This document shows, piece by piece, positions 3,126 through 25,529 of a stretch of 64,000 nucleotides of DNA. Both the position numbers and the translations under genes were made by a program. The notes below the pieces were generated by a model that worked only from the letters and a program-made list of their open reading frames with translations, did no database searches and was not told where the DNA came from. This stretch comes from a virus (Duplodnaviria; Heunggongvirae; Uroviricota; Caudoviricetes): the IMG/VR virus record IMGVR_UViG_2855308460_000004; one strand, 5' to 3'. How positions within the stretch are numbered: position 1 is the first letter of the stretch; every line of letters begins with the position of its first letter.

Positions 3126-4370
3126 ATGCTATTATCAAAAAGAACAACGATCCACGTATCTGAACACCAAGCAAATATTTTGAACCATATGAATTATGCA
3201 GCCAGTAAGTTATGGAATGTATGCAATTATGAGAAACGAAATTATAAGACTTTGGGCATTCCATATCCAAATTGGTACAATCAGAAATCAAGGCTAAAGG
3301 ATAATATCTGGTTTAAGTCGCTTCCATCCCAAACAGCTCAGGAAATCTGCAACCAGATTGATCAGGCTTTTAAAAGCTACTATAAGCTATTAAAAACAGG
3401 TGGAATCAAGTCTCCAAAACCACCTAAATTCAAGCAGGAAGGGATTCCAATTACTTATATGCAGAATGGGATTGTACATAATAAGAAATCTGCACAGATC
3501 CGGCTAAGTATTCCAAAGAATTTAAAGGTACATATGGCAGAACGGTTTGATGTCCATGATAACTATCTATTCCTGGAAAATAAAGTTTTCCAGGACATGG
3601 AAAACATCAAACAGATCAAGCTATATCCACCTGTAAATGGAGAACTACTGATGATTGTTATCTATGAGATTCCAGAGGTTGGCTGGCTTCCAGATAATAG
3701 CCATTATCTGTCCATTGACTTAGGAATCGAGAACCTGATGACCTGCTATGATAGTTTGGGTAACAGTTTTATTGTTGGAAATAGCTACTTGGAAGTTTCG
3801 CATTACTTTAACAAAAAAATTGCACACTATCAGTCCATATCAGACAGTCAGCAAGTGTCAAAAGGAACTAAGTATCCAAAATCTTCCAAACGCGTTCTGA
3901 AGCTCTATAAAAAGAAGCACAACAGTATTAAAGATGTCCTCCACAAATCAACAAAATATATTGTTGATTATTGTTTGGAACATCATATCTATACAGTAAT
4001 TATCGGTGATATAAAACATATCAGGGACAACAATAGTTTGGGTTCTAAAACAAATCAGGTGTTTCATGCCTGGCCATTTCGTGAAATATATTTGATGTTG
4101 GAATATAAATTAAAGCAGCATGGAATTCGCTTAACAAGGATAAAAGAATCCTATTCCAGTCAATGTAGTCCATTATCAAAAGAAGTTAGTAAACGATATG
4201 CAAATAAGTCGAATCGAATAAAAAGAGGCTTATATAAAGAAGCCGGACATATATGGAATACCGATGCGGTAGGCGCTTATAATATCATGAGACTATACTT
4301 TAAACAGATAGGTCGAGGCAAACAGATTTCTCATCAAAACCTAGGAAGTCCGATAAAAGTAACTGTGTAA
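3126..4370 (+). CDS. tnpB: IS605/IS1341-family TnpB-like (OrfB) protein, 414 aa; RuvC-II Glu and zinc finger look degenerate
   Basis: TnpB hallmarks are visible: RuvC-I SIDLGIENL and RuvC-III NTDAVGAYNI. Where the RuvC-II motif (IxEDL) is expected the sequence reads VIIGDIKH. The C-terminal CxxC…CxxC is reduced to a single Cys. Confidence 0.7.
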   Translation: MLLSKRTTIHVSEHQANILNHMNYAASKLWNVCNYEKRNYKTLGIPYPNWYNQKSRLKDNIWFKSLPSQTAQEICNQIDQAFKSYYKLLKTGGIKSPKPPKFKQEGIPITYMQNGIVHNKKSAQIRLSIPKNLKVHMAERFDVHDNYLFLENKVFQDMENIKQIKLYPPVNGELLMIVIYEIPEVGWLPDNSHYLSIDLGIENLMTCYDSLGNSFIVGNSYLEVSHYFNKKIAHYQSISDSQQVSKGTKYPKSSKRVLKLYKKKHNSIKDVLHKSTKYIVDYCLEHHIYTVIIGDIKHIRDNNSLGSKTNQVFHAWPFREIYLMLEYKLKQHGIRLTRIKESYSSQCSPLSKEVSKRYANKSNRIKRGLYKEAGHIWNTDAVGAYNIMRLYFKQIGRGKQISHQNLGSPIKVTV

Positions 4371-6440: not shown

Positions 6441-6524
6441 AATATTTTTACATACTAGTAACAACAACTGAAGTCAGGATATAATATTGTGATTTTAGTT
6501 AATAAAGGAAAGGGAGAACATGAA

Positions 6525-7706
6525 ATGGAAAACTTTAGCCTGGATTTACCAAAGGTAGAGGATATAAAAGAAAATTTGGAAAAAGAATTAAAACTATCAG
6601 ACGAGAGAGAAATTGTGATTTCTGATGCGGCAAGAGAAAAAGCAGACCAGATTCTTCAGGTTGATGCATATGATTTTTCTAATCGTCAGCAGTTAATTAA
6701 AGCAATTGAGACATTTGGCTCAGACTTAATGGAACAGTCAGAAGAAAAAAACGCAATTTTGGGAAAGCGAATCAGTGAATTAAATCGGATGGGTGGAGAG
6801 AGTCAGGCTGTAGCGAATGGCCTTGATAAACTATCAACAGAAGTGGCTGAATTAAATCCGTCTGGGATTGATTTCACAAAAAATGGATTTTTAGGAATCT
6901 TTTTCAATCCTGTAAAGAAATACTTTAAAAAATATGAAACAGCAGATGTTGTAATCGGGAACATAATCGATGCATTGGAAGAAGGCTCCACCATACTTAA
7001 GGATGATAACACAACACTTGAAATTGAAACAACATCAATGAGAAACATATCAAAACAGTTAATTGAAAAAAGAAAACTAGGTCAGGAATTGGATGACTAT
7101 TTAACCATGCAGATAAACAATATGCGTGCAGAGAATGGCGATAATGAAAAGATTAAATTCATCGAAGAAGAAATTCTATTTCCACTAAGACAACGGATGA
7201 TTGATTTTGGCCAGAAACTGGCCGTGAATCAACAGGGTATCATTGCAATGGAAACAACAAAAAGAAATAATTATGAGTTGATTCGATCGGTTGAAAGAGC
7301 CAAATTTGTAACGGTATCTGCATTACGAACAGCAGTAATTGTTGCAGGATCATTATATAACCAGAATCTTGTTATGTCCAAAATAAAGTTAGTTAATGAT
7401 ACAACGAATGATATGATTGCTACGACATCAAAAATGCTGAAAACCCAAGGTGTAGAAATCCAAAAACAAGCCATTGAAACAAATATAGATATGGACACAC
7501 TTAAGCTGGCAATTACCGATGCATTAGAAGCGTTTGAATCTATTAATAGCTACAAGCAGAAAGCATTACCGCAAATGAAACAAACATTAGCGGAATTTGA
7601 CACCCTTGTAACACAAGGGCAAAAAATTGTAGATGGCATTGAATCATCTGAAAACTTAAGATTAGAAATGATGGGAGATACAAAAGGGAAATTGACGGAT
7701 AAATAA
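6525..7706 (+). CDS. TelA-like (toxic anion resistance family) protein
   Basis: ~390-aa all-helical protein whose size and motif pattern are recalled from the TelA/YaaN family. Start chosen at the ATG with RBS gggag. Confidence 0.45.
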   Translation: MENFSLDLPKVEDIKENLEKELKLSDEREIVISDAAREKADQILQVDAYDFSNRQQLIKAIETFGSDLMEQSEEKNAILGKRISELNRMGGESQAVANGLDKLSTEVAELNPSGIDFTKNGFLGIFFNPVKKYFKKYETADVVIGNIIDALEEGSTILKDDNTTLEIETTSMRNISKQLIEKRKLGQELDDYLTMQINNMRAENGDNEKIKFIEEEILFPLRQRMIDFGQKLAVNQQGIIAMETTKRNNYELIRSVERAKFVTVSALRTAVIVAGSLYNQNLVMSKIKLVNDTTNDMIATTSKMLKTQGVEIQKQAIETNIDMDTLKLAITDALEAFESINSYKQKALPQMKQTLAEFDTLVTQGQKIVDGIESSENLRLEMMGDTKGKLTDK

Positions 7707-7726
7707 TACGATAATTCATAATTTAA

Positions 7727-7748
7727 AAAGGCATTCATGCCTTTTTAT
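7727..7748 (+). terminator. Intrinsic terminator
   Basis: aggcat-tc-atgcct + T-run. Confidence 0.6.
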
Positions 7749-7813
7749 TTTTATAAATAAAATCACAACATACTATAAATGAACTATTACATAAAAGGTA
7801 TAAGGAGATCGTA

Positions 7814-9121
7814 ATGAATAAAAGAATTGTAGAAATAAGTGCAGCTGTAATGTTAGCATTGACAACAGTCTTAGCACTTATTGCTTTTATAGGATATAAA
7901 AAGGTAGATCAGACACTGGGATTAATGCAAAGAACAGATAAAGAAGAAATAAAGGAAATGACAAATCCAAATATATCGAATGATGTTGTGTCAACCTTAA
8001 AAGAGAATTGGACAGTCGCATTATTTGGGCTCGATACAAGGGATACAGATGGTCTGTCGGGTGCAAATTCTGATGTAATCATTCTTGCATCTATTAATAA
8101 TAAAACTGGTGATATTAATTTAATTTCTGTATATCGGGATACATGTTTAAAAACTGGTGATAATCGATACCGAAAAGTAAATGAAGCATATGCAATTGGC
8201 GGACCTAAGAAGGCTGTAGAGGTACTAAATGAAAACCTTGATTTGGAAATTGATGACTATGTAGCGGTAAATTGGAAAGCTGTTGCAACAGCAATTAATA
8301 TTTTAGGCGGAGTCGATATTGAAATCACAAAAGATGAATTGAAATATATCAATGGATATATAACAGAAACAGTGAATAGTACAGGAATAGGGTCATATCA
8401 GATACATGAAGCAGGGATGCAGCATTTGGATGGAATTCAAGCAGTTGCATATTCAAGAATCCGATATACAGCAGGAAATGATTATAAGCGGACAGAACGC
8501 CAAAGAACAGTCCTTGCTGCTGTTTTAGAGAAAGCAAAACATTCAGATTGGTCTACGCTTAATAATGTCATAGTGACTGTTTTCCCAATGACATCTTCAT
8601 CCATCGATACAAATGATGTGATTACAGTTGCTATGAATGTCGCTAATTATAAATTAATAAAAACAGGAGGGTTCCCATTTGATGTAATTGAAAAAAGCGT
8701 GGATAAGCAGGATTATGTTTTTCCTGATACGCTCGAAACTAACGTCTCTAAATTACATGAATTTTTATATGGAACAGACGCCTATACTCCTTCAGATAAA
8801 ATATCTTCCATTAGTAATAAAATTGATAATAAGCGCTTAGGAAGTAAAAGGAACATAAGCAGCACAATCCAACAGGAAACAATGCCAACTGAAGTAAATA
8901 ATGAACCAGAAACAGAAGAGGCAATGTCACAGACAGTAGCCATAGTAAGTGATGAAACAGAAGAAAATATGGATAATATGACAGAACCAGAAACCAATAT
9001 AGAACCGGAAGTAGGCCCGGGAATACAAATTTCAACGCCAGAAGAAAAAACAAAAGAAAACTATGGACCAGGATTTGAAATAGAAATAGAGGAAACTGAA
9101 GAAGCCCAAAGCCCTTCATAA
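7814..9121 (+). CDS. LCP (LytR-CpsA-Psr) family protein with an N-terminal TM and acidic C-terminal tail
   Basis: LCP motifs: LFGLDTRDTDG…SDVIILASIN, YRDT, AVNWKAVATAINILGGVDIEI. Confidence 0.75.
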   Translation: MNKRIVEISAAVMLALTTVLALIAFIGYKKVDQTLGLMQRTDKEEIKEMTNPNISNDVVSTLKENWTVALFGLDTRDTDGLSGANSDVIILASINNKTGDINLISVYRDTCLKTGDNRYRKVNEAYAIGGPKKAVEVLNENLDLEIDDYVAVNWKAVATAINILGGVDIEITKDELKYINGYITETVNSTGIGSYQIHEAGMQHLDGIQAVAYSRIRYTAGNDYKRTERQRTVLAAVLEKAKHSDWSTLNNVIVTVFPMTSSSIDTNDVITVAMNVANYKLIKTGGFPFDVIEKSVDKQDYVFPDTLETNVSKLHEFLYGTDAYTPSDKISSISNKIDNKRLGSKRNISSTIQQETMPTEVNNEPETEEAMSQTVAIVSDETEENMDNMTEPETNIEPEVGPGIQISTPEEKTKENYGPGFEIEIEETEEAQSPS

Positions 9122-9230
9122 AATAGCTAGAAAAATCAAAGATAAACCTTAGTGGTTTATCTTTTTTGTAATTTTTGTTTTTCGAAACCAACTTACATAC
9201 TTTAATTATATTAATGTGTGGAGGTGAAGT

Positions 9231-9872
9231 ATGGCTGAACAAGTGAGAATGGTATTTCAACCTATTTTTGATAAAACAATGCAGGTGTTTGCATACGAGG
9301 GATTAATGAGATTTACAGATACAACGATTGTAAAAGTAATAAGTGAGTGCAGGTCATATTCCGACTTTTACGAAATAGAAAAACTGACATTTTTTAAAGC
9401 TTTACAGGAATATCAAAAACGTAACTATAAAGAAAAACTTTTTATTAACTCGTTCCCTCATGTCCATCTAAGCAAAGCTGATCTGTCTGAAATAATTTCT
9501 CATCACAAGGATACATTAAAAAAAGTAGTAATAGAAATACTTGAATATCCAGATTTAGACCAAGCATCAGTCAAGCAAAAAAAAGATGATGTTAGAAATT
9601 ACGAAGTATTATTTGCAATTGATGATTATGGAGTAAATACATTTGAAAATCTGAAATCAATTGCTCCGGCTTATCTAAAGATTGACAGAAGTATTATTTC
9701 TGGGATACATGAGGACAAAGAAAAACAAAATCAGTTGGATAGTATTCTAGAAATTGCAGATAAATATTCATGTCTTACAATTGCCGAAGGAATAGAAACA
9801 GATAATGAGTTATCTTATTTAAAAAATAAGGTTAATTATTTTCAGGGTTTTCTTTTAGGAAAACCAAATTAA
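9231..9872 (+). CDS. Stand-alone EAL-domain protein (c-di-GMP phosphodiesterase-like), 213 aa
   Basis: YEGLMR (EAL motif), DDYGVN (DDFGTG), LKIDRS, AEGIET, FQGFLLGKP. Confidence 0.7.
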   Translation: MAEQVRMVFQPIFDKTMQVFAYEGLMRFTDTTIVKVISECRSYSDFYEIEKLTFFKALQEYQKRNYKEKLFINSFPHVHLSKADLSEIISHHKDTLKKVVIEILEYPDLDQASVKQKKDDVRNYEVLFAIDDYGVNTFENLKSIAPAYLKIDRSIISGIHEDKEKQNQLDSILEIADKYSCLTIAEGIETDNELSYLKNKVNYFQGFLLGKPN

Positions 9873-10791: not shown

Positions 10792-12114
10792 ATGTTTGTA
10801 TTAATGAAAAATAAAGGGACAAGAAATAAAATATTATTGATTTTAGGATTCATAATATTTGTTCGTATTGGAAGTATTATTCCAATACCTGGGATTAATA
10901 GTGAATATATGAAATCAATCATATCAGGATCCGGATTTCAGTTCTTTAATATGATTACAGGTAACTCTTTTTCCAAGATGTCTCTATTTGCACTAAGTAT
11001 AAGTCCATATATCACAGCGTCAATCATCATCCAATTAATGACTGTAATAATTCCTAAATTAGAAGATTTAAGTAAGGATGGAAAAACAGGACTAGAAAAG
11101 ATTCAAAAAATAACAAATGTTACTGGAATTATAATAGGTTTCATCCAATCTTTTTTCATGGCAGTCAGTTTGGGATCAAAAGGTCTTCTTAATCCATATA
11201 CATGGTGGATGGTTTTGATTGCAACCTGCATCTGGACATTAGGAGCTACTATTTTAATCATAATGGGTGAGAAGATAACGAAACTGGACCTTGGAAATGG
11301 AATATCCTTTATATTATTATTCAATATCCTATCTACATTCCCTGGTGATCTAATGGTTGTCTATGAACGGTTTTCATATGATAGTAAACCAGTTGCAATT
11401 GCTTTAAAACTTTTTTTGGCAATAGCCGTATTCATGGTTTTCCTGGCTGGATGTATCTATTTGAATTTATCTGAAAAAAGAATACAGATAAGATTTTCTA
11501 GAAAGAGCATAAATAATGAGCAAGGAAAAGATTTGCCAATATCATTGAATATCTGTAATGTGATGCCAGTCATTTTTACTGGAAGTATTATAAGCATGGT
11601 TAACATTGCAGCAACTTTCAGCTCCAATCAAATACTATTAACAATTTCAAAATACTTATCACCCAATAATTGGTTTATAATAGGTAGTCTAAAATATACA
11701 TTAGGTTGCATTGTATATATACTGCTTGCCTATTTCTTTGCAAATTTTTATTTAGACATAGCATTTAATGCCACTGAAATTGCACAAAGATTGAAAGCTC
11801 AAGGTGCTACCATTCCAGGAATTAGGCCAGGAAAACCAACATCAGAATTTTTACATACAAATGCGTTTGAAATGATGGTACTAGGGACTGGTTTGATGTT
11901 GTGCATTGTTCTGGGAGCATCTTTGGTGTGTAATATCTTTGGAATAGGTGTTTTGAGTATTGGCGGTACATCTATCCTAATCTGCGTTAATGTAATCATA
12001 GAAACATACAAAAAAATTAAAACAGCTGCCCAAAGTGTAAGGGTTCAGAGTTACTATAAGAAAAAGAATAGCAGAAAGTCATTATTCCAGATGAAAGGAG
12101 TCTATAATGTTTAA
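10792..12114 (+). CDS. secY: SecY preprotein translocase subunit homolog (440 aa), outside any ribosomal-protein operon
   Basis: FVRIGSIIPIPGIN; FALSISPYITASIIIQLMTVI; GKTGLEKIQKITN; GNGISFIL; GIRPGKPTSEFL; GGTSILI — these match SecY signatures across all regions. Confidence 0.85.
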   Translation: MFVLMKNKGTRNKILLILGFIIFVRIGSIIPIPGINSEYMKSIISGSGFQFFNMITGNSFSKMSLFALSISPYITASIIIQLMTVIIPKLEDLSKDGKTGLEKIQKITNVTGIIIGFIQSFFMAVSLGSKGLLNPYTWWMVLIATCIWTLGATILIIMGEKITKLDLGNGISFILLFNILSTFPGDLMVVYERFSYDSKPVAIALKLFLAIAVFMVFLAGCIYLNLSEKRIQIRFSRKSINNEQGKDLPISLNICNVMPVIFTGSIISMVNIAATFSSNQILLTISKYLSPNNWFIIGSLKYTLGCIVYILLAYFFANFYLDIAFNATEIAQRLKAQGATIPGIRPGKPTSEFLHTNAFEMMVLGTGLMLCIVLGASLVCNIFGIGVLSIGGTSILICVNVIIETYKKIKTAAQSVRVQSYYKKKNSRKSLFQMKGVYNV

Positions 12115-12256
12115 TCGCATTCACCAAATGTATATACCAGATAAGATTAAAGTAATTAAAACAATGGTAATGGTAAGCTTGTCTATTTTAATATTGTCAA
12201 GCTTTGTATTTAGTATTGACACACTTATTGCAGGAATATATCAGATGATAATATAA
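12107..12256 (+). CDS. Possible small membrane protein (49 aa) overlapping the secY stop
   Basis: ATG overlaps the secY stop; hydrophobic. Confidence 0.25.
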   Translation: MFNRIHQMYIPDKIKVIKTMVMVSLSILILSSFVFSIDTLIAGIYQMII

Positions 12257-12262
12257 AATAAA

Positions 12263-12283
12263 AAGAAGGCGCAAGCCTTCTTT
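12263..12283. terminator. Bidirectional terminator between secY (+) and clpP (−)
   Basis: gaaggc-gcaa-gccttc flanked by A and T runs. Confidence 0.6.
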
Positions 12284-12878
12284 ATTTTGTTGATACGATT
12301 GTATCTACAATACCATATGCCAATGCTTCATCAGCAGTCAGATAGTTGTCTCTTTCTGTATCTTCACATACCGTGACATAGGGCTTCCCGGTATTCTCAG
12401 ATAAAATTCTGTTTAAACGTTCTTTGGTTTTTTTAATATGGTCAGCGACAATCAGGATTTCGGTTGCCTGGCCTTTTGCACCTCCACTTGGCTGATGAAT
12501 CATTACCTCCGCATTCGGCATAATCATACGTTTGCCTTTTGTACCACCAGCAAGCAGGAATGCTCCCATGCTAGCAGCCATTCCCATACAGATTGTGGAA
12601 ACATCACTTTTGATATATTTCATTGTGTCATAAATAGCCATCCCTGCAGTTACAGACCCACCCGGACTGTTAATGTATAAATAAATATCTTTACCAGGAT
12701 CAACAGAATCCAAAAATAGAAGCTGAGAAGTGATAGAGGCGGCCATTTCATCACAAACTTCTCCAGTTAACATGATGATTCTGTCATTAAGTAATCTTGA
12801 AAAAATATCATATGATCTTTCTCCAGTAGCTGTTCTTTCTATTACATATGGCATTGTAGTCATATTCGTATATCCCAT
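12282..12878 (-). CDS. clpP: ATP-dependent Clp protease proteolytic subunit ClpP
   Basis: Ser-His-Asp motifs [31 protein letters not shown]; bacterial-type length. Confidence 0.9.
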
Positions 12879-13101
12879 AATTATATCTCCTTTTATTCTA
12901 TAAATTTTACATGTTTATAATGTTAAAAAAAAGGACCATATAACTACTAAATTGTATTCTGTGCGTATTACGGTTTGTGACCATCGATAATTTCGAATTA
13001 TATCGGAAGTTAAAATGACATTATATATGCATCAACAGAAATAGATGGAGCATATTTAATGTTTTTATATTTCTGTATTAAAACAAAAGGAGAATTTCAA
13101 T

Positions 13102-13620
13102 ATGAAACTTACTATTATTGGAAAAACTGTTACAATTACGGATGGTATGAGGGAGGCTATTACCGAAAAGCTTTCTAAATGTGATAAATATTTAAAGGAA
13201 AACACGCCGGTAAGAGTAGTTGTCCGAACTGTAAGAGATGACCAAATCATTGAGGTAGCCATTCCAACTGGAAAGAATAAGGAAATCCGAGCAGAACGCA
13301 GAAGTAAGGATCTTTATGAAGCAATTGATTTGGTAGAAGAAGTTCTCAACAGACAGCTTAGGAAACAGAAAGAAAAGAAATTAGATAAGAAACGTATACC
13401 GGTTATGTTTTTAGAAACAGAGCCAGAAGCAGAAATCAAACCGCTTATTATGAAAGAAAAACAGTTTGATTTACAGATGATGACTCCTGAAGAGGCGGTT
13501 GAGGAACTGGAGGCTTTAGACCATGACTTTCATTTATTTATGAATGTGATGGATGGTAGGGTAGGTGTCGTATATAGAAGGAAAGAGGCTGGATACGGGC
13601 TGCTTGCAGCAAATATGTAA
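13102..13620 (+). CDS. hpf: Ribosome hibernation promoting factor (long HPF/RaiA family)
   Basis: MKLTIIGK…ITDGMREAI; N-terminal RaiA fold plus a C-terminal dimerisation domain; 172 aa. Confidence 0.75.
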   Translation: MKLTIIGKTVTITDGMREAITEKLSKCDKYLKENTPVRVVVRTVRDDQIIEVAIPTGKNKEIRAERRSKDLYEAIDLVEEVLNRQLRKQKEKKLDKKRIPVMFLETEPEAEIKPLIMKEKQFDLQMMTPEEAVEELEALDHDFHLFMNVMDGRVGVVYRRKEAGYGLLAANM

Positions 13621-13645
13621 GAGAGGGAAACCTCTCTTTTTGTTT
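13621..13645 (+). terminator. Intrinsic terminator
   Basis: gagagg-gaaa-cctctc + T-run. Confidence 0.6.
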
Positions 13646-13697: not shown

Positions 13698-14111
13698 ATG
13701 ATGATAGAGAAATATTTTGAGATGACAAAGAGAGTGGCCATGAACTCTGAATTCAACAGAGTCCATGTTGGATGTATTGCCATTTATAAAGGCAGAATGA
13801 TAGGTTCAGGTTTCAATTCAGAGAAGACACATCCAATGCAGTATCACTATAACCGATATCGGCAGAATGATAATGTGATATCAGCTAATCTGTTGCCAAA
13901 GATTCATGCTGAAATCATGTGCATCAGTAGCATAAAAAACCAGGATATTGATTTTAAAAAGGTTAAGCTATTTATCTATAGAATTAGAAATGACCAGCCT
14001 TTTGGTATTGCAAGGCCATGCGCGGCATGCATGAATGCAATAAAAGATTTAGGAATCAAAAATATATACTATACAACTGATGTGGGTTATGCACATGAAT
14101 ACTTGGCCTGA
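13698..14111 (+). CDS. dCMP/cytidine deaminase-family zinc enzyme (137 aa)
   Basis: HAE…PCAAC zinc-binding signature. Confidence 0.65.
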   Translation: MMIEKYFEMTKRVAMNSEFNRVHVGCIAIYKGRMIGSGFNSEKTHPMQYHYNRYRQNDNVISANLLPKIHAEIMCISSIKNQDIDFKKVKLFIYRIRNDQPFGIARPCAACMNAIKDLGIKNIYYTTDVGYAHEYLA

Positions 14112-16488: not shown

Positions 16489-16570
16489 GCTCGCATGGCG
16501 GAACAGGAAGACGCATGGGACTTAAAATCCCAGGAAGAAATTCGTGAGGGTTCGATTCCCTCTGTGAGTA
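16489..16570 (+). tRNA. tRNA-Leu (TAA), class II
   Basis: Anticodon arm tggga-ctTAAaa-tccca, long variable arm, T-arm gaggg-ttcgatt-ccctc. Confidence 0.7.
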
Positions 16571-16575
16571 CTGAT

Positions 16576-16647
16576 AGATCGATGGTGTAAATGGCAACAT
16601 GATGGTCTCCAAAACCATTGCTCAGGGTTCGAGTCCCTGTCGGTCTG
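16576..16647 (+). tRNA. tRNA-Trp (CCA)
   Basis: Anticodon arm atggt-ctCCAaa-accat. Confidence 0.8.
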
Positions 16648-16651
16648 TTAT

Positions 16652-16736
16652 ACGGCTATTGCCAAGCGGTAAGGCGGGAGGCTTTGACCCTCTTAAATAT
16701 CAATAGATTTCGCTGGTTCGAATCCAGCTAGCCGTG
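16652..16736 (+). tRNA. Class II-shaped tRNA (Ser-like D-arm, 18-nt variable region) with ambiguous anticodon (loop ctttgac: TTG or shifted TGA)
   Basis: Perfect acceptor acggcta/tagccgt; D-arm gcc-aagcggtaa-ggc; T-arm gctgg-ttcgaat-ccagc. Confidence 0.45.
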
Positions 16737-16763
16737 TTATATAACTACCAAAGTTATAATCCT

Positions 16764-16836
16764 GGCCGCATAGTCGAGTGGTTATGACGGGAGCCTTTCA
16801 AGCTTCAGGTGTCGGGTTCAATTCCCACTGCGGTCA
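16764..16836 (+). tRNA. tRNA-Glu (TTC); T-stem has mismatches
   Basis: Anticodon arm ggagc-ctTTCaa-gcttc; acceptor ggccgca/tgcggtc. Confidence 0.5.
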
Positions 16837-16862
16837 TTATATCAAAATAAGGAGATAAAAAA

Positions 16863-16898
16863 ATGAAACGAAAAACAGAACGTACGAAAACAGAATGA
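16863..16898 (+). CDS. 11-codon mini-ORF (MKRKTERTKTE) with a strong RBS inside the tRNA array
   Basis: aaggagat, 8-nt spacer, then ATG; ends 9 nt before tRNA-Lys. Confidence 0.25.
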   Translation: MKRKTERTKTE

Positions 16899-16906
16899 AA
16901 TTATAC

Positions 16907-16980
16907 GCGCCTGTAGCTCAGTTGGCTAAAGCAACCGGCTTTTAACCGGTAGACCGTGGGTTCGAGTCCCACTAGGCGCA
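16907..16980 (+). tRNA. tRNA-Lys (TTT)
   Basis: Anticodon arm accgg-ctTTTaa-ccggt. Confidence 0.8.
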
Positions 16981-16984
16981 TTTA

Positions 16985-17066
16985 GCACGTATCGCCTAGT
17001 GGTAGGGCACTCGACTTTTAATCGAGAGGCACATGGCCATCCTGGGTTCGAATCCCAGTACGTGCA
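16985..17066 (+). tRNA. tRNA-Lys(TTT)-like with an anomalous 15-nt variable region (82 nt)
   Basis: Perfect acceptor gcacgta/tacgtgc; anticodon arm ctcga-ctTTTaa-tcgag; T-arm ctggg-ttcgaat-cccag. Confidence 0.45.
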
Positions 17067-17071
17067 TTCAT

Positions 17072-17143
17072 GCATCGTAGCCCATGCGGAGTGGGAACAG
17101 TCTGCAAAACTGTCTTTGGTCGGTTCGACTCCGACACGATGCT
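17072..17143 (+). tRNA. tRNA-Cys (GCA)
   Basis: Perfect acceptor; anticodon arm acagt-ctGCAaa-actgt. Confidence 0.8.
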
Positions 17144-17412
17144 TGTGCATATTATCGCTGTGGCAAAAAAAGTACTAAAGATATCGGAAACAGCATAAAA
17201 CGACTCTTTGGTAAATAGCACAGACGCATGGAACTAACAATTGTGAAATGCGGAGCAGACAGGATAGGAAAATTGATATGCTGGTCAAAATTACTACTGT
17301 AAAAAAACATGGTATATGAAACTATATCTGCGTAAAGTGGTGAGGTTCTTTTGGATGCCCGATGAAATAAAAATAATGCTTTCGGCCAACTCCACGTAAT
17401 ATGCCCAATTAA

Positions 17413-17832
17413 TTGGAGGTTGTAATGTATCATTTGATAAAGAAACATCAATACCTTGTAATTAGTATCTTATTTATGGTTGTCTTGAGAGGAATAGAGT
17501 TTGCGTTAGTAAATACAGGACATGAATTTGAAATGGTACTCCTTGATCCTATAGCATTCGCACTGCTGTATGTTTTGCTGGCAATAAAATGTAATATTAC
17601 GGATATAAGCAAGATAACATTTACTTTAATATGTCTCATTATGATGTATATAGTAAGCGAATCAATTTTTTTAGTTCCACATTCTTGGATTACTTATAAG
17701 GATAAGGGTTTTTTTGGAGGCCTTTACACATTAATGTATTCATTAACAATCCTGTATGATTGGATATATGTAATCGTGTGTTATTTAATAACAATTATAG
17801 TTAAATTAGTCATTAATAGACTGCGTCTGTAG
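17413..17832 (+). CDS. Small polytopic membrane protein (139 aa) between the two halves of array 2; its stop lies inside the next tRNA
   Basis: RBS ggaggt; four hydrophobic segments; TAG stop at 17830–17832, inside tRNA-Lys (17823–17895). Confidence 0.5.
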   Translation: MEVVMYHLIKKHQYLVISILFMVVLRGIEFALVNTGHEFEMVLLDPIAFALLYVLLAIKCNITDISKITFTLICLIMMYIVSESIFLVPHSWITYKDKGFFGGLYTLMYSLTILYDWIYVIVCYLITIIVKLVINRLRL

Positions 17833-17895
17833 CTCAGCTGGAAGAGCAGGTGGCTCTTAACCATCAGGTCCAGGGTTCGATGCCCTGCAGGCGCA
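17823..17895 (+). tRNA. tRNA-Lys (CTT)
   Basis: Anticodon arm ggtgg-ctCTTaa-ccatc. Confidence 0.8.
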
Positions 17896-17936
17896 TTTCT
17901 ATCCAATAGGAAAGATTCATGTGAATTATAAATTTA

Positions 17937-18010
17937 GGCGCTATAGTGGAATTGGTTATCACGCCAGACTCTCAATCTGGAGACTGCGAGTTCAAGCCTC
18001 GCTAGCGTCA
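17937..18010 (+). tRNA. tRNA-Glu (CTC)
   Basis: Anticodon arm ccaga-ctCTCaa-tctgg. Confidence 0.8.
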
Positions 18011-18013
18011 TAT

Positions 18014-18093
18014 GTCCATATGGTGGAACGGAATACACGCTCGGCTAAGAACCGGGTCCCAAGAGGATGTGGGTTCAAATCCCACTATGGACA
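18014..18093 (+). tRNA. Class II tRNA with anticodon loop ctAAGaa (Leu AAG; A34 is unusual)
   Basis: Perfect acceptor gtccata/tatggac; 12-nt variable arm; T-arm gtggg-ttcaaat-cccac. Confidence 0.5.
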
Positions 18094-18097
18094 TTAT

Positions 18098-18170
18098 AGC
18101 CCAATAGTTCAACTGGAAGAACATCAGTTTCTGAATCTGAATGTTGCAGGTTCGAATCCTGCTTGGGTTG
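18098..18170 (+). tRNA. tRNA-Gln (CTG)
   Basis: Anticodon loop ttCTGaa. Confidence 0.7.
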
Positions 18171-18193
18171 TCAAACAGAGTTTTTGATAATTT

Positions 18194-18275
18194 GCCCATA
18201 TGGCGTAATGGCAGACGCTGTGGACTTAAAATCCACTGGATTCATTCCGTGCCGGTTCGAGTCCGGCTATGGGTA
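18194..18275 (+). tRNA. tRNA-Leu (TAA), second copy
   Basis: Perfect acceptor gcccata/tatgggt; anticodon arm gtgga-ctTAAaa-tccac. Confidence 0.8.
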
Positions 18276-18283
18276 TTTATTTT

Positions 18284-18355
18284 GGCATCTTCGACAAGTT
18301 GGTAAGTCGCAGGTATTTCAAACCTGAGTCACTGGTTCGAATCCAGTAGATGTCA
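18284..18355 (+). tRNA. tRNA-Glu (TTC)-like (loop atTTCaa, A32)
   Basis: Acceptor ggcatct/agatgtc; T-arm actgg-ttcgaat-ccagt. Confidence 0.5.
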
Positions 18356-18358
18356 TCA

Positions 18359-18429
18359 GCTTTCATAGTTTAAAGGTAGAACAGCTGCCTCGTAAGCAGT
18401 CAATGACAGTTCGATTCTGTCTGGAAGCT
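18359..18429 (+). tRNA. tRNA-Thr (CGT)
   Basis: Anticodon arm gctgc-ctCGTaa-gcagt; T-arm gacag-ttcgatt-ctgtc. Confidence 0.7.
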
Positions 18430-18430
18430 T

Positions 18431-18591
18431 TCCTATAGTCGCTGTGGTACGGACACAGACGCCATCGCAGGTCATAGTGGCGGAGCAAGGACGAGTCGAA
18501 ACGATGACGGTATTAGACAGTCTAAATAGAGCAAAGGCAGATTGCTTGCGTAAAGAGGTGAGTCTTAGCGGACAATTCCTCGCTATAGGAA
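18431..18591 (+). ncRNA. ~160-nt structured element between tRNAs, closed by a 9-bp stem (tcctatagt…gctatagga); unclassified
   Basis: Long-range inverted repeat plus internal hairpins (gcaaaggcagattgcttgc, cgaaacg loop); no ORF. Confidence 0.3.
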
Positions 18592-18676
18592 TACTATATA
18601 TTTTTGACCGTTTGTGGAGCTGACTTTTTGGTATGTGAGGTTAGTGGTGACAATGAGGAGGAGGGCATTGTCATTA

Positions 18677-18757
18677 GCTCGTATGATGGAAAGGAAGACA
18701 TGGCTGACTCAAAATCAGCTGCCGATAGGCGTAAGGGTTCAAATCCCTTTATGAGCA
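18677..18757 (+). tRNA. tRNA-Leu (CAA)
   Basis: Anticodon arm gctga-ctCAAaa-tcagc; class II. Confidence 0.75.
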
Positions 18758-18763
18758 TGCAAT

Positions 18764-18843
18764 GTTCATGTGGCGGAATGGAATACGCGTGCGGCTCAGA
18801 ACCGCATGGTTATACCTTGTGGGTTCGAATCCCACCATGAACA
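18764..18843 (+). tRNA. tRNA-Leu (CAG)
   Basis: Perfect acceptor; anticodon arm tgcgg-ctCAGaa-ccgca. Confidence 0.8.
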
Positions 18844-18846
18844 TCT

Positions 18847-18918
18847 GCCTTTATAGGCTAATGGACAAACTGCCTGACTTCGAATCAGGTGTTATGAGTT
18901 CGAATCTCATTAAAGGCA
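18847..18918 (+). tRNA. tRNA-Arg (TCG)
   Basis: Anticodon arm cctga-ctTCGaa-tcagg. Confidence 0.75.
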
Positions 18919-18922
18919 CTAA

Positions 18923-18994
18923 GTTCCTGTAGGCTAATGGATAAACCATCCGGCTACGAACCGGCAATTGGGAGTTCGAATCTCTTCAGGAACA
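18923..18994 (+). tRNA. tRNA-Arg (ACG)
   Basis: Perfect acceptor gttcctg/caggaac; anticodon loop ctACGaa. Confidence 0.75.
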
Positions 18995-18998
18995 TGAA

Positions 18999-19077
18999 GC
19001 CCGCATGGTGGAATGGAAGACATGCCTGACTTAGGATCAGGTGCGAAAGCGTGAGGGTTCAAATCCCTCTGTGGGTA
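18999..19077 (+). tRNA. tRNA-Leu (TAG)
   Basis: Anticodon arm cctga-ctTAGga-tcagg; variable arm tgcgaaagcgt. Confidence 0.8.
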
Positions 19078-19196: not shown

Positions 19197-20147
19197 ATGA
19201 TGAGCGAAAATAAATATATCAATAAACTATTTTTAATGGACAATTTGGAATTGTTAAGGTCACTTCCATCCAATTCAATTGACTTGATTTTTTGCGATAT
19301 CCTTTATAACACTGGAAAGACATTTGATGATTATGAAGATAAACTTGGAAATGCAAAGGAGGCTATGGAATGGTATGAACCAAGATTAAAAGAGATGTGG
19401 AGGGTGATTAAGGACACAGGCGCTGTATACCTTCATTGCAATTACCGCTTGGTACACTATTTGCGTGTAAAATTGGATGAGATATTTGGCATAGATTCAT
19501 ATCGAAATGAAATTATTTGGCATCAGGGCAGTTGGAAGAATTATAGTAATAAGAAACTAGAATCCGCACATGAAAGTATGCTTTTTTACGCAAAACCAAA
19601 TCATACAATTAATGAACAGTTGGCAAGAGGATATACCGATGTTTGGACCATAGACGCCCTGAACCAAAATGATAGAATTAATGAAAAGGTTGGATATGAA
19701 GGGCAAAAACCAATTGAATATATTGAGCGGGTCATAAAAATTAGTAGCAAACCAGGTGATTTGGTTGCTGATTTCTTTTTGGGAAGTGGAACTACATGTG
19801 TTGCAGCAAAAAAGTTGGGAAGAAATTATTTAGGCTGTGATATTAATCCAAGAGCAATTGAATTAACAATGGAACGTTTGGATGATTTAGATCACAAAGA
19901 AAACATAGTAAAACATACTATGACCAACCTAAAAGACTGTCCAATTGGTTTGTTTTACTTGATTTTAGGAGATGGAACTGATCAACTTTGCGTGAAAACC
20001 GAGTATATTACCAGCAGCGGTGGTATCGAAGCATATATCGTTGAGTCAGGTGAATATCTTTCTTGTAATGGGCTGACTAGTTCATTAGAAGGATGCGAAA
20101 AAATTAAGGTAATACCAGTTAATATAACAACCTCAGAAAGGGTATAA
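19197..20147 (+). CDS. Beta-class N6A/N4C DNA methyltransferase-like protein with DILY in place of the DPPY motif
   Basis: IDLIFCDILYNTG where motif IV is expected; FxGxG SAM motif DFFLGSGTTCVAA downstream; ~100-aa C-terminal extension. Confidence 0.6.
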   Translation: MMSENKYINKLFLMDNLELLRSLPSNSIDLIFCDILYNTGKTFDDYEDKLGNAKEAMEWYEPRLKEMWRVIKDTGAVYLHCNYRLVHYLRVKLDEIFGIDSYRNEIIWHQGSWKNYSNKKLESAHESMLFYAKPNHTINEQLARGYTDVWTIDALNQNDRINEKVGYEGQKPIEYIERVIKISSKPGDLVADFFLGSGTTCVAAKKLGRNYLGCDINPRAIELTMERLDDLDHKENIVKHTMTNLKDCPIGLFYLILGDGTDQLCVKTEYITSSGGIEAYIVESGEYLSCNGLTSSLEGCEKIKVIPVNITTSERV

Positions 20148-20159
20148 GGAGAAAATAAA

Positions 20160-20378
20160 ATGAAAGCTTTATTAATTTCAACGGATGGTTATTCAATTCA
20201 AACAAAAAAGTGTGATTCTATTCAGGAAGCACAAAAAATAATGAGTGACGAATATAAAGACGCATACCCAGAAGTAAATGATGAAAGTTCAGAAGAAATG
20301 AGTTCTATTTCAGAACGTGATGCAATTTTGTATGCAAATGGAGAAAATGTATTTGTTTGGTCTATTGTAGAAATTTAA
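20160..20378 (+). CDS. Small acidic hypothetical protein (72 aa)
   Basis: ORF with RBS. Confidence 0.4.
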   Translation: MKALLISTDGYSIQTKKCDSIQEAQKIMSDEYKDAYPEVNDESSEEMSSISERDAILYANGENVFVWSIVEI

Positions 20379-20475
20379 GAGAAGGATAAAACCTTCTCTT
20401 TTTAATTCTTCAGTAAAAATAGCATTATATATAGGAACAAGAAAACAAGGAGTTGAATATAGAAAAGGAGAGAAA

Positions 20476-21183
20476 ATGGAAAAAGATATAGTTTGTGTTT
20501 GTGAAATCGCACAAGATATTGATGATTTAATAGCTCTTGATTTTTTAAATAGAAGTAATCGGTTAAAAGGAGTAGTGCTTGATCCGCCTCCCAAAACTAG
20601 AGAAGACTGGACAAGAGTTGAAAGAATCAAATCATTAGGAATTGAAATTTATAAGTCCATTCCTTATTGTAAGGCTATTTTTGTTGGAGGTGCGTTTACA
20701 AGTGTAGCGAGATATTTATTAATGAACAAAGTAGAATACATAATTGCAAATGGAGGATTTGTAGGTGCAAACATAGTACCGGAAGATAAACAGTTAAAAA
20801 AGTTTAAAGGAAAAACTCATGTCAGAACTTTTAATTTCTGCTTAGATGTGGATAGTGCTTTAAAAGTCTTAGGTAGTAAAAATGTGGAACATATTTTATT
20901 GGTTGGAAAAAATGTATGCCATGATGAAAAAAATACTTTATCAGGAATATGGAAAGATGAAAATTGGATTCGAGAATATAAAATATCTGAGACAAAACGT
21001 CTTCATGATGTCTTGGCTTATGCGGAAGGGCTTGACTACATAGATGGCATAAAAAGTAAAAGGCTAAATTACCAGCCTGTGGAACCAGAGGCTGTAGACA
21101 TAGCTGGAAATAAAACAAAATTTGGTAGTATACCGTTGGATTCCAGTCACATTCTGGCAGCAACAACATGGAAAATAGCATAA
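20476..21183 (+). CDS. Hypothetical protein (235 aa)
   Basis: ORF with RBS aaaaggagag. Confidence 0.5.
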   Translation: MEKDIVCVCEIAQDIDDLIALDFLNRSNRLKGVVLDPPPKTREDWTRVERIKSLGIEIYKSIPYCKAIFVGGAFTSVARYLLMNKVEYIIANGGFVGANIVPEDKQLKKFKGKTHVRTFNFCLDVDSALKVLGSKNVEHILLVGKNVCHDEKNTLSGIWKDENWIREYKISETKRLHDVLAYAEGLDYIDGIKSKRLNYQPVEPEAVDIAGNKTKFGSIPLDSSHILAATTWKIA

Positions 21184-21207
21184 ACTAATTATGAAAGGAA
21201 GATATGT

Positions 21208-21867
21208 ATGGATATTTATTTAATTCGTCATGGTGAATCAATCATGAACACAGGAGAAAATACAAAAATTGGAGCAATTGATAATAAAGTCTGGCTCACT
21301 GAAAAAGGGAAAGAGCAAGCAAAAAGATCAGCAGAATTTTTAAAAGAATACTTAGAATATGATTGCAATGGTACGGCTAAAACTGGAATATGGGTTAGTC
21401 CATATAGTAGAACGCGTGAAACTTTTAATATATTCAAGTCAATTATCGACTTCCAGGATATGGGTGCTGTATGTAAAGAAGATATTCTTTTAGCAGAACA
21501 GGAATTTGGATTATTTGACTCTGTACCAGAAGAAAATTGGAGTGATGAGTTTCCAAAAGAATATACGTATTACAAGAAACTGAAAGAAAACCAAGGCAAA
21601 TTTTACGCAAGGTGCCCTATGGGTGAAAGTCCAAAAGATGTTGCAATTAGGTGCCGTATATTTTTTGATACAATCTGGAGAGATTATGATAAGCATCATA
21701 TTGACAAGCTCTTTATATTTACACATGGGACAGTGCTTCGTTCTTTTGTAATGGCTTGGCAGCACTATACACCAGAATGGTATGAAGCAGAAAAAAATCC
21801 AGGCAATTGCTGGATTAGAAGGATTAGTAACAACAAGGACATGGGTTATATATACAAAGGAGAATAA
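21208..21867 (+). CDS. Histidine phosphatase superfamily protein (PGAM-like)
   Basis: N-terminal LIRHGES catalytic motif. Confidence 0.65.
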   Translation: MDIYLIRHGESIMNTGENTKIGAIDNKVWLTEKGKEQAKRSAEFLKEYLEYDCNGTAKTGIWVSPYSRTRETFNIFKSIIDFQDMGAVCKEDILLAEQEFGLFDSVPEENWSDEFPKEYTYYKKLKENQGKFYARCPMGESPKDVAIRCRIFFDTIWRDYDKHHIDKLFIFTHGTVLRSFVMAWQHYTPEWYEAEKNPGNCWIRRISNNKDMGYIYKGE

Positions 21868-21868
21868 T

Positions 21869-22681
21869 ATGTTTTTTTTACTTCAAAAGGAAGAGAAATA
21901 TAACAATCTGGATTTAGAAACATTTATCGTCAAAGATATCCTTGAGCACAATAAATTTATGGATGAATATATTTTCTATTCAAAAGATGATTTTGTTTTA
22001 GATGGACTTTGTGAATATCCAAGATATATAAAACAAGCGATTCCTGTGGGAACAATAGATTTTGTTGAAGCCTGGCTGTATCGATTCCACAAAATCGACT
22101 GTATTAACCCAATTGAGATTCCACCTTGCTTAAGAAAGGAAGAATTCCTAAAGAGAGAATATAGAATTGTAAGGAAAGAGAATCTTCCAACTGCAGGGCA
22201 AATTTTTTTTAAGGATGCATCAAGATTGAAAGTTTTTTCGGGAGAAATTAATTGCGAGACATTTTTTACAGATGATTTGTGGAAACCGAAACAGAATGAT
22301 GTTGATACAACACTTCACTTGGATCCAGAGCATTTATTTCAGGTATCAGAGATTGTGAATATAAGAAGTGAATATAGAATATATATACAGGATAATATCA
22401 TCCAGGCCATCGCAAATTATAATGGAGCTCCTTGTTTGTTGCCAGATGTTGAGTTACTGCAAAAGATGATAAATATCTATTCCATGCAGTACGATTGCCC
22501 AAAAGCTTATACAATGGATGTCGCAGTTAATGAAAAGGGAACATTCCTTTTAGAAATACATCCATGGATAGCAGTAGGATTATATAATAGTCTGTGGAGC
22601 AGAAATTTGTTATATGCATATAGAGATGGCATACAATATGTTTTGGATTTTAATACAGAGATAGAAGAGTGGAACAATTAG
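21869..22681 (+). CDS. ATP-grasp-like hypothetical protein (270 aa)
   Basis: YRIYIQDNII and MDVAVNEKGTFLLEIHPW resemble ATP-grasp C-terminal motifs; start placed at the ATG after RBS aaaggagaa. Confidence 0.35.
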   Translation: MFFLLQKEEKYNNLDLETFIVKDILEHNKFMDEYIFYSKDDFVLDGLCEYPRYIKQAIPVGTIDFVEAWLYRFHKIDCINPIEIPPCLRKEEFLKREYRIVRKENLPTAGQIFFKDASRLKVFSGEINCETFFTDDLWKPKQNDVDTTLHLDPEHLFQVSEIVNIRSEYRIYIQDNIIQAIANYNGAPCLLPDVELLQKMINIYSMQYDCPKAYTMDVAVNEKGTFLLEIHPWIAVGLYNSLWSRNLLYAYRDGIQYVLDFNTEIEEWNN

Positions 22682-22709
22682 GCGAAATATTTAATAGAGG
22701 AGAAAAACT

Positions 22710-23915: not shown

Positions 23916-23997
23916 TATAAAGAGTATCTTCGGATACTTTTTATCATTTAAGGGAAATACACATTATATAGTTATAAAATTGAAAGGATGAGAATGT

Positions 23998-24162
23998 ATG
24001 AAGAATGTTTGTGAAAGATGTTCTCTTTATAAGACATGTAATGGAATTAAACATGATCCAAATGAATGTGAATGCATTGAAAATTTTTATGATCAATTTT
24101 TAGATTCTGATGATGACTTAATATGGGAGGAGAAATCGATGAATACTGTTGAAGCTGCATAA
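23998..24162 (+). CDS. Small Cys-rich protein (54 aa)
   Basis: C-x2-C…C…C-x-C pattern; below the ORF-track length cutoff. Confidence 0.3.
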   Translation: MKNVCERCSLYKTCNGIKHDPNECECIENFYDQFLDSDDDLIWEEKSMNTVEAA

Positions 24163-24381
24163 AGAGGTAGGTACAAAACTAAAAAAGCCATTATTATACT
24201 ATATGAATTCATAAGTTATACAGTTTAATTGCAGATTCCGAATATGGATTCTACATACGAAGAAAAGAAAACAATGGATGTAAATATTATATATTAAACA
24301 GGGTTATCCCTGTTTTTCTATTTTCTATCATACATAAAGAAATACATACTATCTTTAATAAGAGAAAAAGGAGAAAAATAA

Positions 24382-24687
24382 ATGAAAACTTTGATTGATA
24401 TCATTATCGGAATTTTAATATGGCAGCTTTTATCAACAATATTATTATATTGGAATGATGATTCAAACACATTCAAGATTATCTTATGCGGAATTCCATT
24501 ATTGTTTCTTTGGGTGATAGGGTATCCGTTTAGAAAGACAGATTTCTTTAACCGTATAAGATATTTTCGGTGTAGTAAGAAAATAACTGAAAACGGAAAG
24601 ACGGAAGCAAGGGAATACTACTGCACCGTACATGATGAACGCCATGTATGTGTTTATAGTCCAGGAGATAAAAAAAGTATCGGATGA
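24382..24687 (+). CDS. Small membrane protein (101 aa)
   Basis: Two TM segments; RBS aaaaggagaaaaa. Confidence 0.45.
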   Translation: MKTLIDIIIGILIWQLLSTILLYWNDDSNTFKIILCGIPLLFLWVIGYPFRKTDFFNRIRYFRCSKKITENGKTEAREYYCTVHDERHVCVYSPGDKKSIG

Positions 24688-25453: not shown

Positions 25454-25478
25454 AAACGGATAAATCCGTTTTTATTTT
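25453..25478 (+). terminator. Intrinsic terminator
   Basis: aaacgga-taaa-tccgttt + T-run. Confidence 0.6.
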
Positions 25479-25529
25479 ACTCTCTTATTAAGTTATGATA
25501 TAATGGATAAAAGAAAATGGGAGGATAAT

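Follow-up and report, generated by a model that had tools for sequence, protein, structure and literature searches.

A divergent clpP–hpf gene pair carried by giant, low-GC, apparently conjugative elements of gut Lachnospiraceae

Genes of the ClpP and ribosome hibernation-promoting factor (HPF) families are already known from megaplasmids and phages. The pMEGA megaplasmids of Enterobacteriaceae encode ClpP, ClpX and a highly expressed YhbH, along with more than 100 tRNAs, NAD genes and tRNA ligases (bioRxiv 10.1101/2025.09.30.679422). Among phages, phage G encodes ClpP and ClpX in addition to its head protease (PMC12484599), some jumbo phages encode ClpP (PMC7824862), and rV5-like phages, GAP32 and viral metagenomes encode short HPFs, of which that of rV5 did not bind Escherichia coli ribosomes in the single reported test (PMC6375957). 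The Hodor megaplasmids, in turn, are conjugative elements of gut Bacillota that had been filed as huge phages, and their viral listing was shown to be a misclassification (PMC12934698). Here we analyse a 64,000-nucleotide stretch of DNA (hereafter, the window) from the IMG/VR virus record IMGVR_UViG_2855308460_000004, which carries a clpP gene next to a gene for a long-form HPF (hpf). By sequence comparison, the pair belongs to a backbone that is conserved in a family of elements of ~0.38–0.56 Mb and ~34% GC from gut Lachnospiraceae. Given the precedents, the pair is not surprising by itself; the more noteworthy lead is the element family, whose members are giant, low in GC and rich in tRNA genes, seem to be conjugative, occur in gut Clostridia that can be cultured and are filed as viral in IMG/VR. 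Features are located in Table 1, where loci other than the window are designated by L and a number.

The clpP product is a full-length MEROPS S14 Clp proteolytic subunit, as its CLP_protease domain scores above the curated thresholds (Pfam, 270 bits against a cutoff of 20.2, residues 19–197); it also passes NF001368/PRK00277 (310.9 bits, cutoff 249) and lies narrowly under the cutoff of the TIGR00493 equivalog model (296.7 against 308.6). Its best PDB matches are full length (E ~1e-83), and its alignments with the ClpP structures known from Enterococcus, Staphylococcus, Listeria and Bacillus span the entire protein (E ~1e-80). Alignment with the S. aureus protein, at 65% identity, equates Ser103/His128/Asp177 with S98/H123/D172, in agreement with the PDB alignments, so that the description in an earlier note of a bacterial-type ClpP with a complete catalytic triad holds. 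NCBI annotates the gene from Met6, giving 193 aa; use of the first ATG, which is preceded at 8 nt by an AGGAG ribosome-binding site, adds five N-terminal residues.

Compared with the housekeeping ClpPs of Lachnospiraceae and Bacilli, to which it is 65–78% identical, the product shares length, triad and the conserved N-terminal and pocket segments, and differs in being carried on a mobile element. A neighbour-joining tree without support values groups the element ClpPs, from the window to L009, in a single clade nested among Lachnospiraceae-type ClpPs at 70–78% identity, and places that of L011 apart, which may reflect a second capture of clpP. Cellular clpP is usually arranged as tig-clpP-clpX, whereas no clpX accompanies the gene here: in the ~108 kb of contiguous sequence that we inspected of the 380–560-kb element, from ~19 kb upstream to ~88 kb downstream of the pair, we found no gene for a Clp unfoldase (ClpX, ClpC or ClpE domains) or an adaptor, and the related loci likewise contained no unfoldase gene. 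The element ClpP would thus have to rely on host ATPases. Inspection of the spacer by eye revealed no CtsR-type tandem heptad upstream of clpP.

The hpf product consists of an S30AE N-terminal domain (PF02482 Ribosomal_S30AE, 71.4 bits, residues 4–93), a short linker and an S30AE_C dimerisation domain (PF16321 Ribosom_S30AE_C, 72.2 bits, residues 113–167), and exceeds the TIGR00741 cutoff (72.6 against 40.9). Its alignments with the long HPFs of S. aureus and Lactococcus lactis, both taken from solved 100S ribosome structures, run from end to end, and residues H141, F143, F146, Y158, Y165 and G166 of its C-terminal domain are invariant in the HPF family alignment; the earlier assignment to the long form is therefore confirmed. 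The gene carries an AGGAG-type ribosome-binding site. The two-domain architecture is common to the Firmicute long HPFs SaHPF (S. aureus), YvyD (B. subtilis) and YfiA (L. lactis), although the element protein is only 30–40% identical to them and its linker is shorter.

An exhaustive profile-free search retrieved no HPF more than 50% identical outside the element family, the nearest named one being a Lachnospiraceae RaiA (46% identity), and tblastn against a phage collection matched only unannotated records resembling bacterial fragments. Long HPFs are annotated as raiA in 18 PLSDB records, mostly from Firmicutes and many of megaplasmid size (Bacillus, Paenibacillus, Priestia). The position of the element gene, beside clpP and between two tRNA arrays, differs from the usual cellular context, as judged from the control loci described below and from the Bacillus gene order, which we take to be yvyD-secA-prfB. 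A separate, independent case of a virus-borne hibernation factor was found in IMGVR_UViG_3300013936_000019 (L018:9986-10354), an unrelated, phage-like sequence of 94 kb and 32% GC, where a 122-aa short HPF (phrog_8990) sits among strongly phage-specific genes.

The two genes lie side by side, as first noted, and are divergently transcribed from a 223-bp spacer. As an intrinsic terminator directly follows hpf, this gene is probably monocistronic; clpP shares a bidirectional terminator with the convergent unit of secY and a SecE-like gene. A promoter scan called no promoter within the spacer. Reading by eye, we propose a candidate sigma-A-like promoter for hpf, formed by TCAACA (13032–13037) and TTTAAT (13055–13060) with a 17-nt spacer, and there is a conserved TATAAT-like box (12914–12921) adjoining the clpP leader. 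Both ribosome-binding sites are conserved in the three aligned sequences (window, L007 and L009), and the window and L007, from Lacrimispora, both retain the motif TCAACA-N17-T(T/A)TAAT ahead of hpf.

The arrangement recurs across the family. The distance between clpP and hpf is 184–230 bp in near-identical copies, in L021 (HPF 97% identical), in L007 (77%) and in L009/L010 (59%); in L011/L012 (53%) it reaches 1.1 kb (up to 1,099 bp), with two small ORFs in between. As a control, we scanned metagenomes with the family alignment and recovered 78 loci whose HPFs are at most 42% identical and probably cellular, some 40 of them of at least 10 kb; none of the 78 contained clpP in the fetched flanks. 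Because it is kept in the family and absent from these loci, the clpP–hpf adjacency is best seen as a derived, conserved feature of the element family and not as an inherited cellular operon, and these comparisons indicate that its recurrence is more than chance. In addition, hpf lies inside a syntenic core common to L011 and L013, which continues in L101 and L103 and comprises, in this order, a methyltransferase-like gene, a 150-aa gene, MYG1, SLT, a ParA-like ATPase gene, a ~780-aa gene, a 309-aa gene, a DnaG-like gene, a sigma factor gene, RecD2, a signal peptidase gene and a 552-aa gene.

Comparisons with copies whose synonymous divergence is unsaturated yielded dN/dS values of 0.042 for clpP (dS 0.38; 96%-identical copy in L021) and 0.087 for hpf (dS 0.14), which argues that both are maintained by selection. 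Their GC at third codon positions (GC3; 0.30 and 0.33, respectively) is like that of the rest of the element. The chromosomes of Enterocloster and Hungatella have ~48–50% GC, and the agreement of GC3 with the element thus suggests that the captures are old. Together, these comparisons indicate that both genes are derived from cells, intact, under strong purifying selection and fully adapted in composition to the element.

The window has 34% GC and a monotonic GC skew, with its genes mostly on one strand. Five of its proteins (HPF, SecY and those of 496, 552 and 780 aa) are found without any difference on contig QSGP01000005.1 (472,371 bp) of Enterocloster aldenensis (GCA_003467385.1), where the window corresponds to approximately 276.6–340.6 kb, and proteins more than 90% identical occur on a Hungatella hathewayi contig (396,256 bp) and on many metagenome contigs of 311–562 kb. 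The same element is thus present in isolates of two genera, with proteins ~71–95% identical, and the related metagenome contigs cluster near 376–378 kb and reach up to 562 kb, which suggests recent transfer between genera and a variable element size. More distant is a 151-kb contig of Lacrimispora amygdalina (L007; 77–82%), and among the IMG/VR records there is a relative of 233 kb (IMGVR_UViG_3300039379_000022), which encodes the 780-aa protein at 97% identity. At the DNA level, comparison with annotated phages produced a single 315-bp match of 73% identity, at chance level, and plasmids produced none. Our literature search found no published description of this element family or of giant elements from Enterocloster or Hungatella.

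The identity of the element bears directly on the role of the pair, since the earlier note had attributed to it host-takeover functions. Its statement that these functions are not structural stands: searches with Pfam and PHROGs detected no capsid, portal, terminase or tail gene in the window, in the adjoining 7 kb on its upstream and 9 kb on its downstream side or along the part of the IMG/VR relative that we read, nor any virion or packaging gene among 54 further unannotated ORFs of the family, so that no portal or capsid gene accompanies clpP over the sequence inspected. The 7 kb upstream of the window contain genes for NAPRTase, NAD synthase and Uma2, and the 9 kb downstream, on the E. aldenensis contig, encode PNK-like, TopoIII-like, Uma2 and PcfJ proteins. 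Past the window, the IMG/VR relative encodes first ADP-ribosylglycohydrolase, YqeY, a two-PDZ protein, MscS, a P-type cation ATPase, PspA and YpsA/DUF488, and next choline-binding proteins and a second RecD2; we also read from sequence motifs a putative pair of AAA ATPase and vWA proteins.

Further along the same relative, a conjugation-type block encodes, besides a 727-aa ATPase, two paralogues (468 and 576 aa), two small membrane proteins and a multi-pass, VirB6-like membrane protein of 265 aa. The ATPase is 42–52% identical to the "VirD4-like conjugal transfer protein, CD1115 family" of plasmids from Clostridium, Enterococcus, Brevibacillus and Paenibacillus, has matches in 2,692 plasmids, 1,849 of which are predicted to be conjugative, and matches the VirD4-type Cag5 in the PDB. 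As in Firmicute conjugative plasmids and integrative and conjugative elements (ICEs), therefore, a type IV coupling protein is present. The GC content of the block (32–36%) is native to the element, indicating that it is not a recently captured ICE. The coupling protein, in a UniRef cluster at 90% identity or more, is named for E. aldenensis and also occurs on the same metagenome contigs of 314–562 kb, and its 265-aa neighbour is RHB42229.1, from the same contig as the HPF RHB42130.1, and occurs also on the Hungatella contig. The coupling protein, PcfJ, the TopoIII-like protein, the ParA-like ATPase and the occurrence in cultured isolates of at least two genera make a conjugative megaplasmid or giant ICE the most likely identity of the element, and the viral listing of its relative in IMG/VR is probably a misclassification. 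For virus catalogues this is a caution, as a record filed as viral carries conjugation genes and no virion gene in the part read.

Judged by gene content and not by sequence, the pMEGA megaplasmids seem the closest functional precedent. They share with the element a giant, plasmid-like nature, duplicated housekeeping functions, ClpP, a hibernation factor, tRNA arrays, NAD synthesis, conjugation genes, membrane proteins of the SPFH and tellurium-resistance types and a tRNA ligase. Nevertheless, their hosts are Proteobacteria and not Lachnospiraceae, their HPF is of the short gammaproteobacterial YhbH type instead of the long two-domain form, they encode ClpX, whereas we found no unfoldase, and no conserved divergent clpP–hpf pair has been described for them. 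The Hodor megaplasmids resemble the element in exceeding 300 kb, in coming from the human gut, in being held in huge-phage or viral collections despite lacking terminase, and in their VirD4- and VirB6-type genes, their own SecY/SecE and TnpB insertions. However, they have 44.6–47.1% GC, against ~34%, and the part of the element that we read shows none of their multiple sortases, giant surface proteins (more than 7,300 aa), SecG/trigger factor and Rep_3, whereas the paper describing them names no tRNA arrays, ClpP or HPF (PMC12934698). On the mismatch in GC, and on the hallmark genes missing from the part read, we provisionally set aside membership in the Hodor group. Phages carry mobile copies of the same two cellular families, but these carriers form virions, their HPFs are short and single-domain, and the two genes have not been reported adjacent in them.

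We consider that the pair supplies plasmid-borne support for stress tolerance and proteostasis, acting through host ribosomes and host Clp ATPases, and we assign to this proposal a probability of roughly 55%. From homology, the N-terminal domain of the element HPF would bind host 70S ribosomes and occupy the decoding region of the 30S subunit, and the C-terminal domain would pair them into 100S particles, which would preserve ribosomes while host growth is arrested. The element ClpP is predicted, also from homology, to form tetradecamers (double heptamers), alone or mixed with host ClpP, which ATPases of the host ClpX/ClpC type would drive, adding to or retuning regulated proteolysis. Together with the tRNAs, RtcB-type repair, SecY/SecE/signal peptidase, NAD synthesis and membrane-stress genes, the two proteins might buffer the cost of carrying a very large, AT-rich and compositionally foreign replicon, and so keep host and element viable through starvation. 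The genes for ClpP/ClpX and YhbH on pMEGA megaplasmids may work in an analogous way.

Several observations weigh against this proposal. Rep, relaxase and VirB4 were not seen within the inspected part of the element, and virion genes may lie in the more than 250 kb beyond it; the 233-kb relative is listed as viral in IMG/VR; and several gene classes typical of huge phages are present (tRNA arrays, RtcB, NAD salvage, ADP-ribosylglycohydrolases, homing HNH endonucleases and a sigma factor). Moreover, the cassette is not obligatory: in L013/L014 (HPF 56% identical) hpf stands without clpP or secY in its vicinity, and in L007 the pair has no secY next to it.

The best surviving alternative, which we regard as possible although clearly less probable, is that the pair belongs to a module for establishment or counter-defence: HPF would shield ribosomes, or compete with host hibernation or with ribosome-targeting toxins, and ClpP would alter the turnover of antitoxins, defence proteins or regulators, favouring survival upon entry into new hosts. 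Such a module would fit a neighbourhood rich in RtcB, PNK-like, NAD synthesis, methyltransferase and several ADP-ribosylglycohydrolase genes and in diverse tRNAs, the Wadjet JetC/JetD genes near hpf in L013 and the recent crossing between genera. The authors of the pMEGA study argued similarly for tRNAs, NAD genes and ligases (bioRxiv 10.1101/2025.09.30.679422), and Mizuno et al. proposed that a viral HPF competes with host HPF (PMC6375957). Yet the fully kept dimerisation domain argues for ordinary 100S formation and not for a dominant-negative competitor, no specific target or adaptor is identifiable, and the same data are equally compatible with plain stress buffering. More speculative still, the element might use its own HPF and ClpP to time the entry of the host into dormancy and its exit, as a plasmid-controlled growth-arrest switch that secures maintenance and transfer; the pair would then be the first visible sign of a so far undescribed family of conjugative elements, giant and of low GC, that bring a near-complete tRNA set and their own translocon, proteostasis and hibernation genes into culturable Enterocloster, Hungatella and Lacrimispora. 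We hold this extension to be doubtful.

Host takeover by a huge phage or phage-plasmid, in which HPF silences or dimerises host ribosomes and ClpP degrades host proteins with host or element unfoldases, appears unlikely. It would accord with the viral listing of the 233-kb relative and with the phage-typical classes, here including at least 37 tRNAs, RtcB with a PNK-like protein, NAD synthesis, a NUMOD4/HNH endonuclease and a sigma factor; phage G encodes both ClpP and ClpX alongside a head protease (PMC12484599), an anti-host action has been proposed for jumbo-phage ClpP (PMC7824862), and short HPFs occur in phages (PMC6375957) and in L018. The lack of virion and packaging genes in the sequences searched, the coupling protein and other conjugation-type genes of native GC, and the fact that cultured isolates of at least two genera stably carry the element all point elsewhere, as do the phage matches of HPF, limited to records that look like bacterial fragments. 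Nor does the suggestion in the earlier note that the element might arrest host ribosomes and redirect proteolysis fare well, because HPF binds any 70S ribosome and cannot discriminate between host and element translation, and neither an unfoldase nor an adaptor was found in the ~108 kb inspected. A resident supplier of stress and proteostasis functions fits the data better than an acute takeover.

It is more improbable that clpP and hpf are neutral passengers, redundant copies of host housekeeping genes borne by a large plasmid without a role. The nearest named relatives of both come from Lachnospiraceae, the host family, and duplicated cellular genes are frequent on large plasmids, as with the long HPFs in PLSDB; against this, the dN/dS values are low (0.04–0.09), composition is fully ameliorated, each gene has its own ribosome-binding site and terminator, and both genes, with their linkage, persist even in lineages at 53% HPF identity. 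Finally, we dismiss a role of ClpP as prohead (capsid maturation) protease as extremely improbable, for although ClpP-fold proteases are common head-maturation enzymes and there are partial matches to NF045542 and NF045540, the protein scores 94.6 on the head-maturation model NF045542 (cutoff 120) against ~311 bits on the cellular model, is 65–78% identical to cellular ClpPs over its full length and has no portal, capsid or scaffold gene nearby.

If the proposal of stress and proteostasis support is correct, a widespread gut element with its own ribosome-hibernation and Clp-protease genes would be open to study in culturable isolates, and it would become testable whether giant plasmids tune the dormancy and proteostasis of their hosts, and how they pay for their carriage.

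Table 1. Location of the clpP–hpf pair, its flanking signals and other features of the element; positions refer to the window unless a locus is given.
Feature	Position	Strand	Basis or remarks
clpP, cellular-type ClpP proteolytic subunit	12282-12878	minus	198 aa; Pfam/NCBIfam and PDB matches
hpf, long-form ribosome hibernation-promoting factor	13102-13620	plus	172 aa; domain and structure matches
Divergent intergenic region with both ribosome-binding sites	12879-13101		223 bp; sequence
Bidirectional intrinsic terminator, common to clpP and the convergent SecY/SecE-like unit	12262-12283		terminator scan
Intrinsic terminator directly 3' of hpf	13619-13640	plus	terminator scan
secY, canonical, not SecY2	10792-12114	plus	Pfam SecY, 241 bits; TIGR00967, 276 against cutoff 253.6
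SecE-like single-pass membrane ORF, overlapping the end of secY	12107-12256	plus	49 aa; sequence; orthologues
dCMP/cytidine deaminase-family gene, directly downstream of hpf	13698-14111	plus	Pfam dCMP_cyt_deam_1
LytR-CpsA-Psr gene	7814-9121	plus	Pfam; conserved upstream neighbour
EAL-domain gene	9231-9872	plus	Pfam; conserved upstream neighbour
Upstream tRNA array	539-2682	plus	18 by ARAGORN and one Rfam-only at 865-941
Downstream tRNA array	16489-19077	plus	19 tRNA genes
Envelope/osmotic stress genes, jointly	window 6489-7706, 31238-32779, 41225-43916; L019:1140-1955; L020:4756-5424, 6661-9315		
Conjugation-type block, ~100 kb downstream of clpP/hpf	L110:215-7791 (IMGVR_UViG_3300039379_000022, ~156.8-164.4 kb)		
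VirD4-like coupling protein	L110:2348-4531		727 aa; CD1115-family similarity

Among the neighbours of the pair, the canonical nature of SecY agrees with the scores of SecY2 models, which are far under their cutoffs. The gene adjoins the pair in most but not all relatives: it lies beside clpP in L009 and L011, and is absent in L007 and L013. Orthologues of the overlapping 49-aa ORF match PF00584 SecE weakly in L009 and are unmarked in L011. The element thus carries a partial Sec pathway, consisting of SecY and the SecE-like ORF plus a type I signal peptidase (60596–61162), which is encoded 48 kb away as a member of the conserved core block. On the other side of the pair, the deaminase gene is retained in L009 and absent in L007 and L011. 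Upstream, both the LytR and EAL genes have orthologues in L007, and LytR also in L009.

The two tRNA arrays, which border the cassette also in L007, L009 and L011, add up to 37–38 genes in the window. They serve 18 amino acids, with duplicated isoacceptors that differ in sequence, and the window contains no tRNA for Ser or Tyr. Some of the tRNAs are unusually long: Ile-TAT of 89 nt (1330–1418), Gln of 87 nt (16651–16737) and Lys of 82 nt (16985–17066). Inside the array of L009 there is a predicted suppressor tRNA (L009:12653-12732) with anticodon TTA, which reads UAA; phage G has also been reported with a suppressor tRNA (PMC12484599).

A cluster for RNA repair and nucleic-acid modification (19197–26853) encodes an N6/N4 methyltransferase, a His_Phos phosphatase, an R2K ATP-grasp protein, an RtcB ligase, an RNase H-like protein, a radical-SAM protein and a NUMOD4/HNH homing endonuclease, and a PNK-like AAA_33+Metallophos protein is encoded shortly beyond the end of the window (L015:11876-13075). 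Immediately upstream of the first tRNA array (L016:1-2982), the genes for NAPRTase and for a glutamine-dependent NAD synthase form a pair that replenishes NAD; such pairs have been discussed as an answer to defences that deplete it. In L013 (L013:1-4298), the element itself bears, within a few kb of hpf, the Wadjet-type anti-plasmid defence genes JetC/JetD. Genes for envelope and osmotic stress are concentrated on the element, and specify TelA, flotillin, an OpuA betaine ABC transporter, MscS, PspA/IM30 and a P-type cation ATPase.

Other products of the window are radical-SAM proteins, ADP-ribosylglycohydrolase, MYG1 and wall hydrolases with SLT and 3D domains, and the ParA-like ATPase, after which come the 780-aa protein, a DnaG-like zinc-ribbon protein, a sigma-70 factor, RecD2 and signal peptidase I. 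About one in two ORFs of the window belongs to no family. There are almost no paralogues within the window, and a search for repeated 12–16-mers gave nothing usable. A conserved core pair of genes (51136–54971) encodes a 496-aa ParA/MinD-like ATPase and the 780-aa protein, which belongs to no family, had no fold match in the PDB at E ≤ 0.001 and no tblastn match against phages and plasmids. AlphaFold predicts for it a folded N-terminal domain, a disordered linker of ~330 residues (127–459) and a beta-rich C-terminal domain (mean pLDDT 57). Used as a multi-copy probe, the TnpB of the window had no match on the IMG/VR relative. This IS605-type TnpB gene (3126–4370) is present in the window and in L002/L005, and absent from the same spot in the near-identical L001/L003, a difference that is a recent insertion polymorphism.

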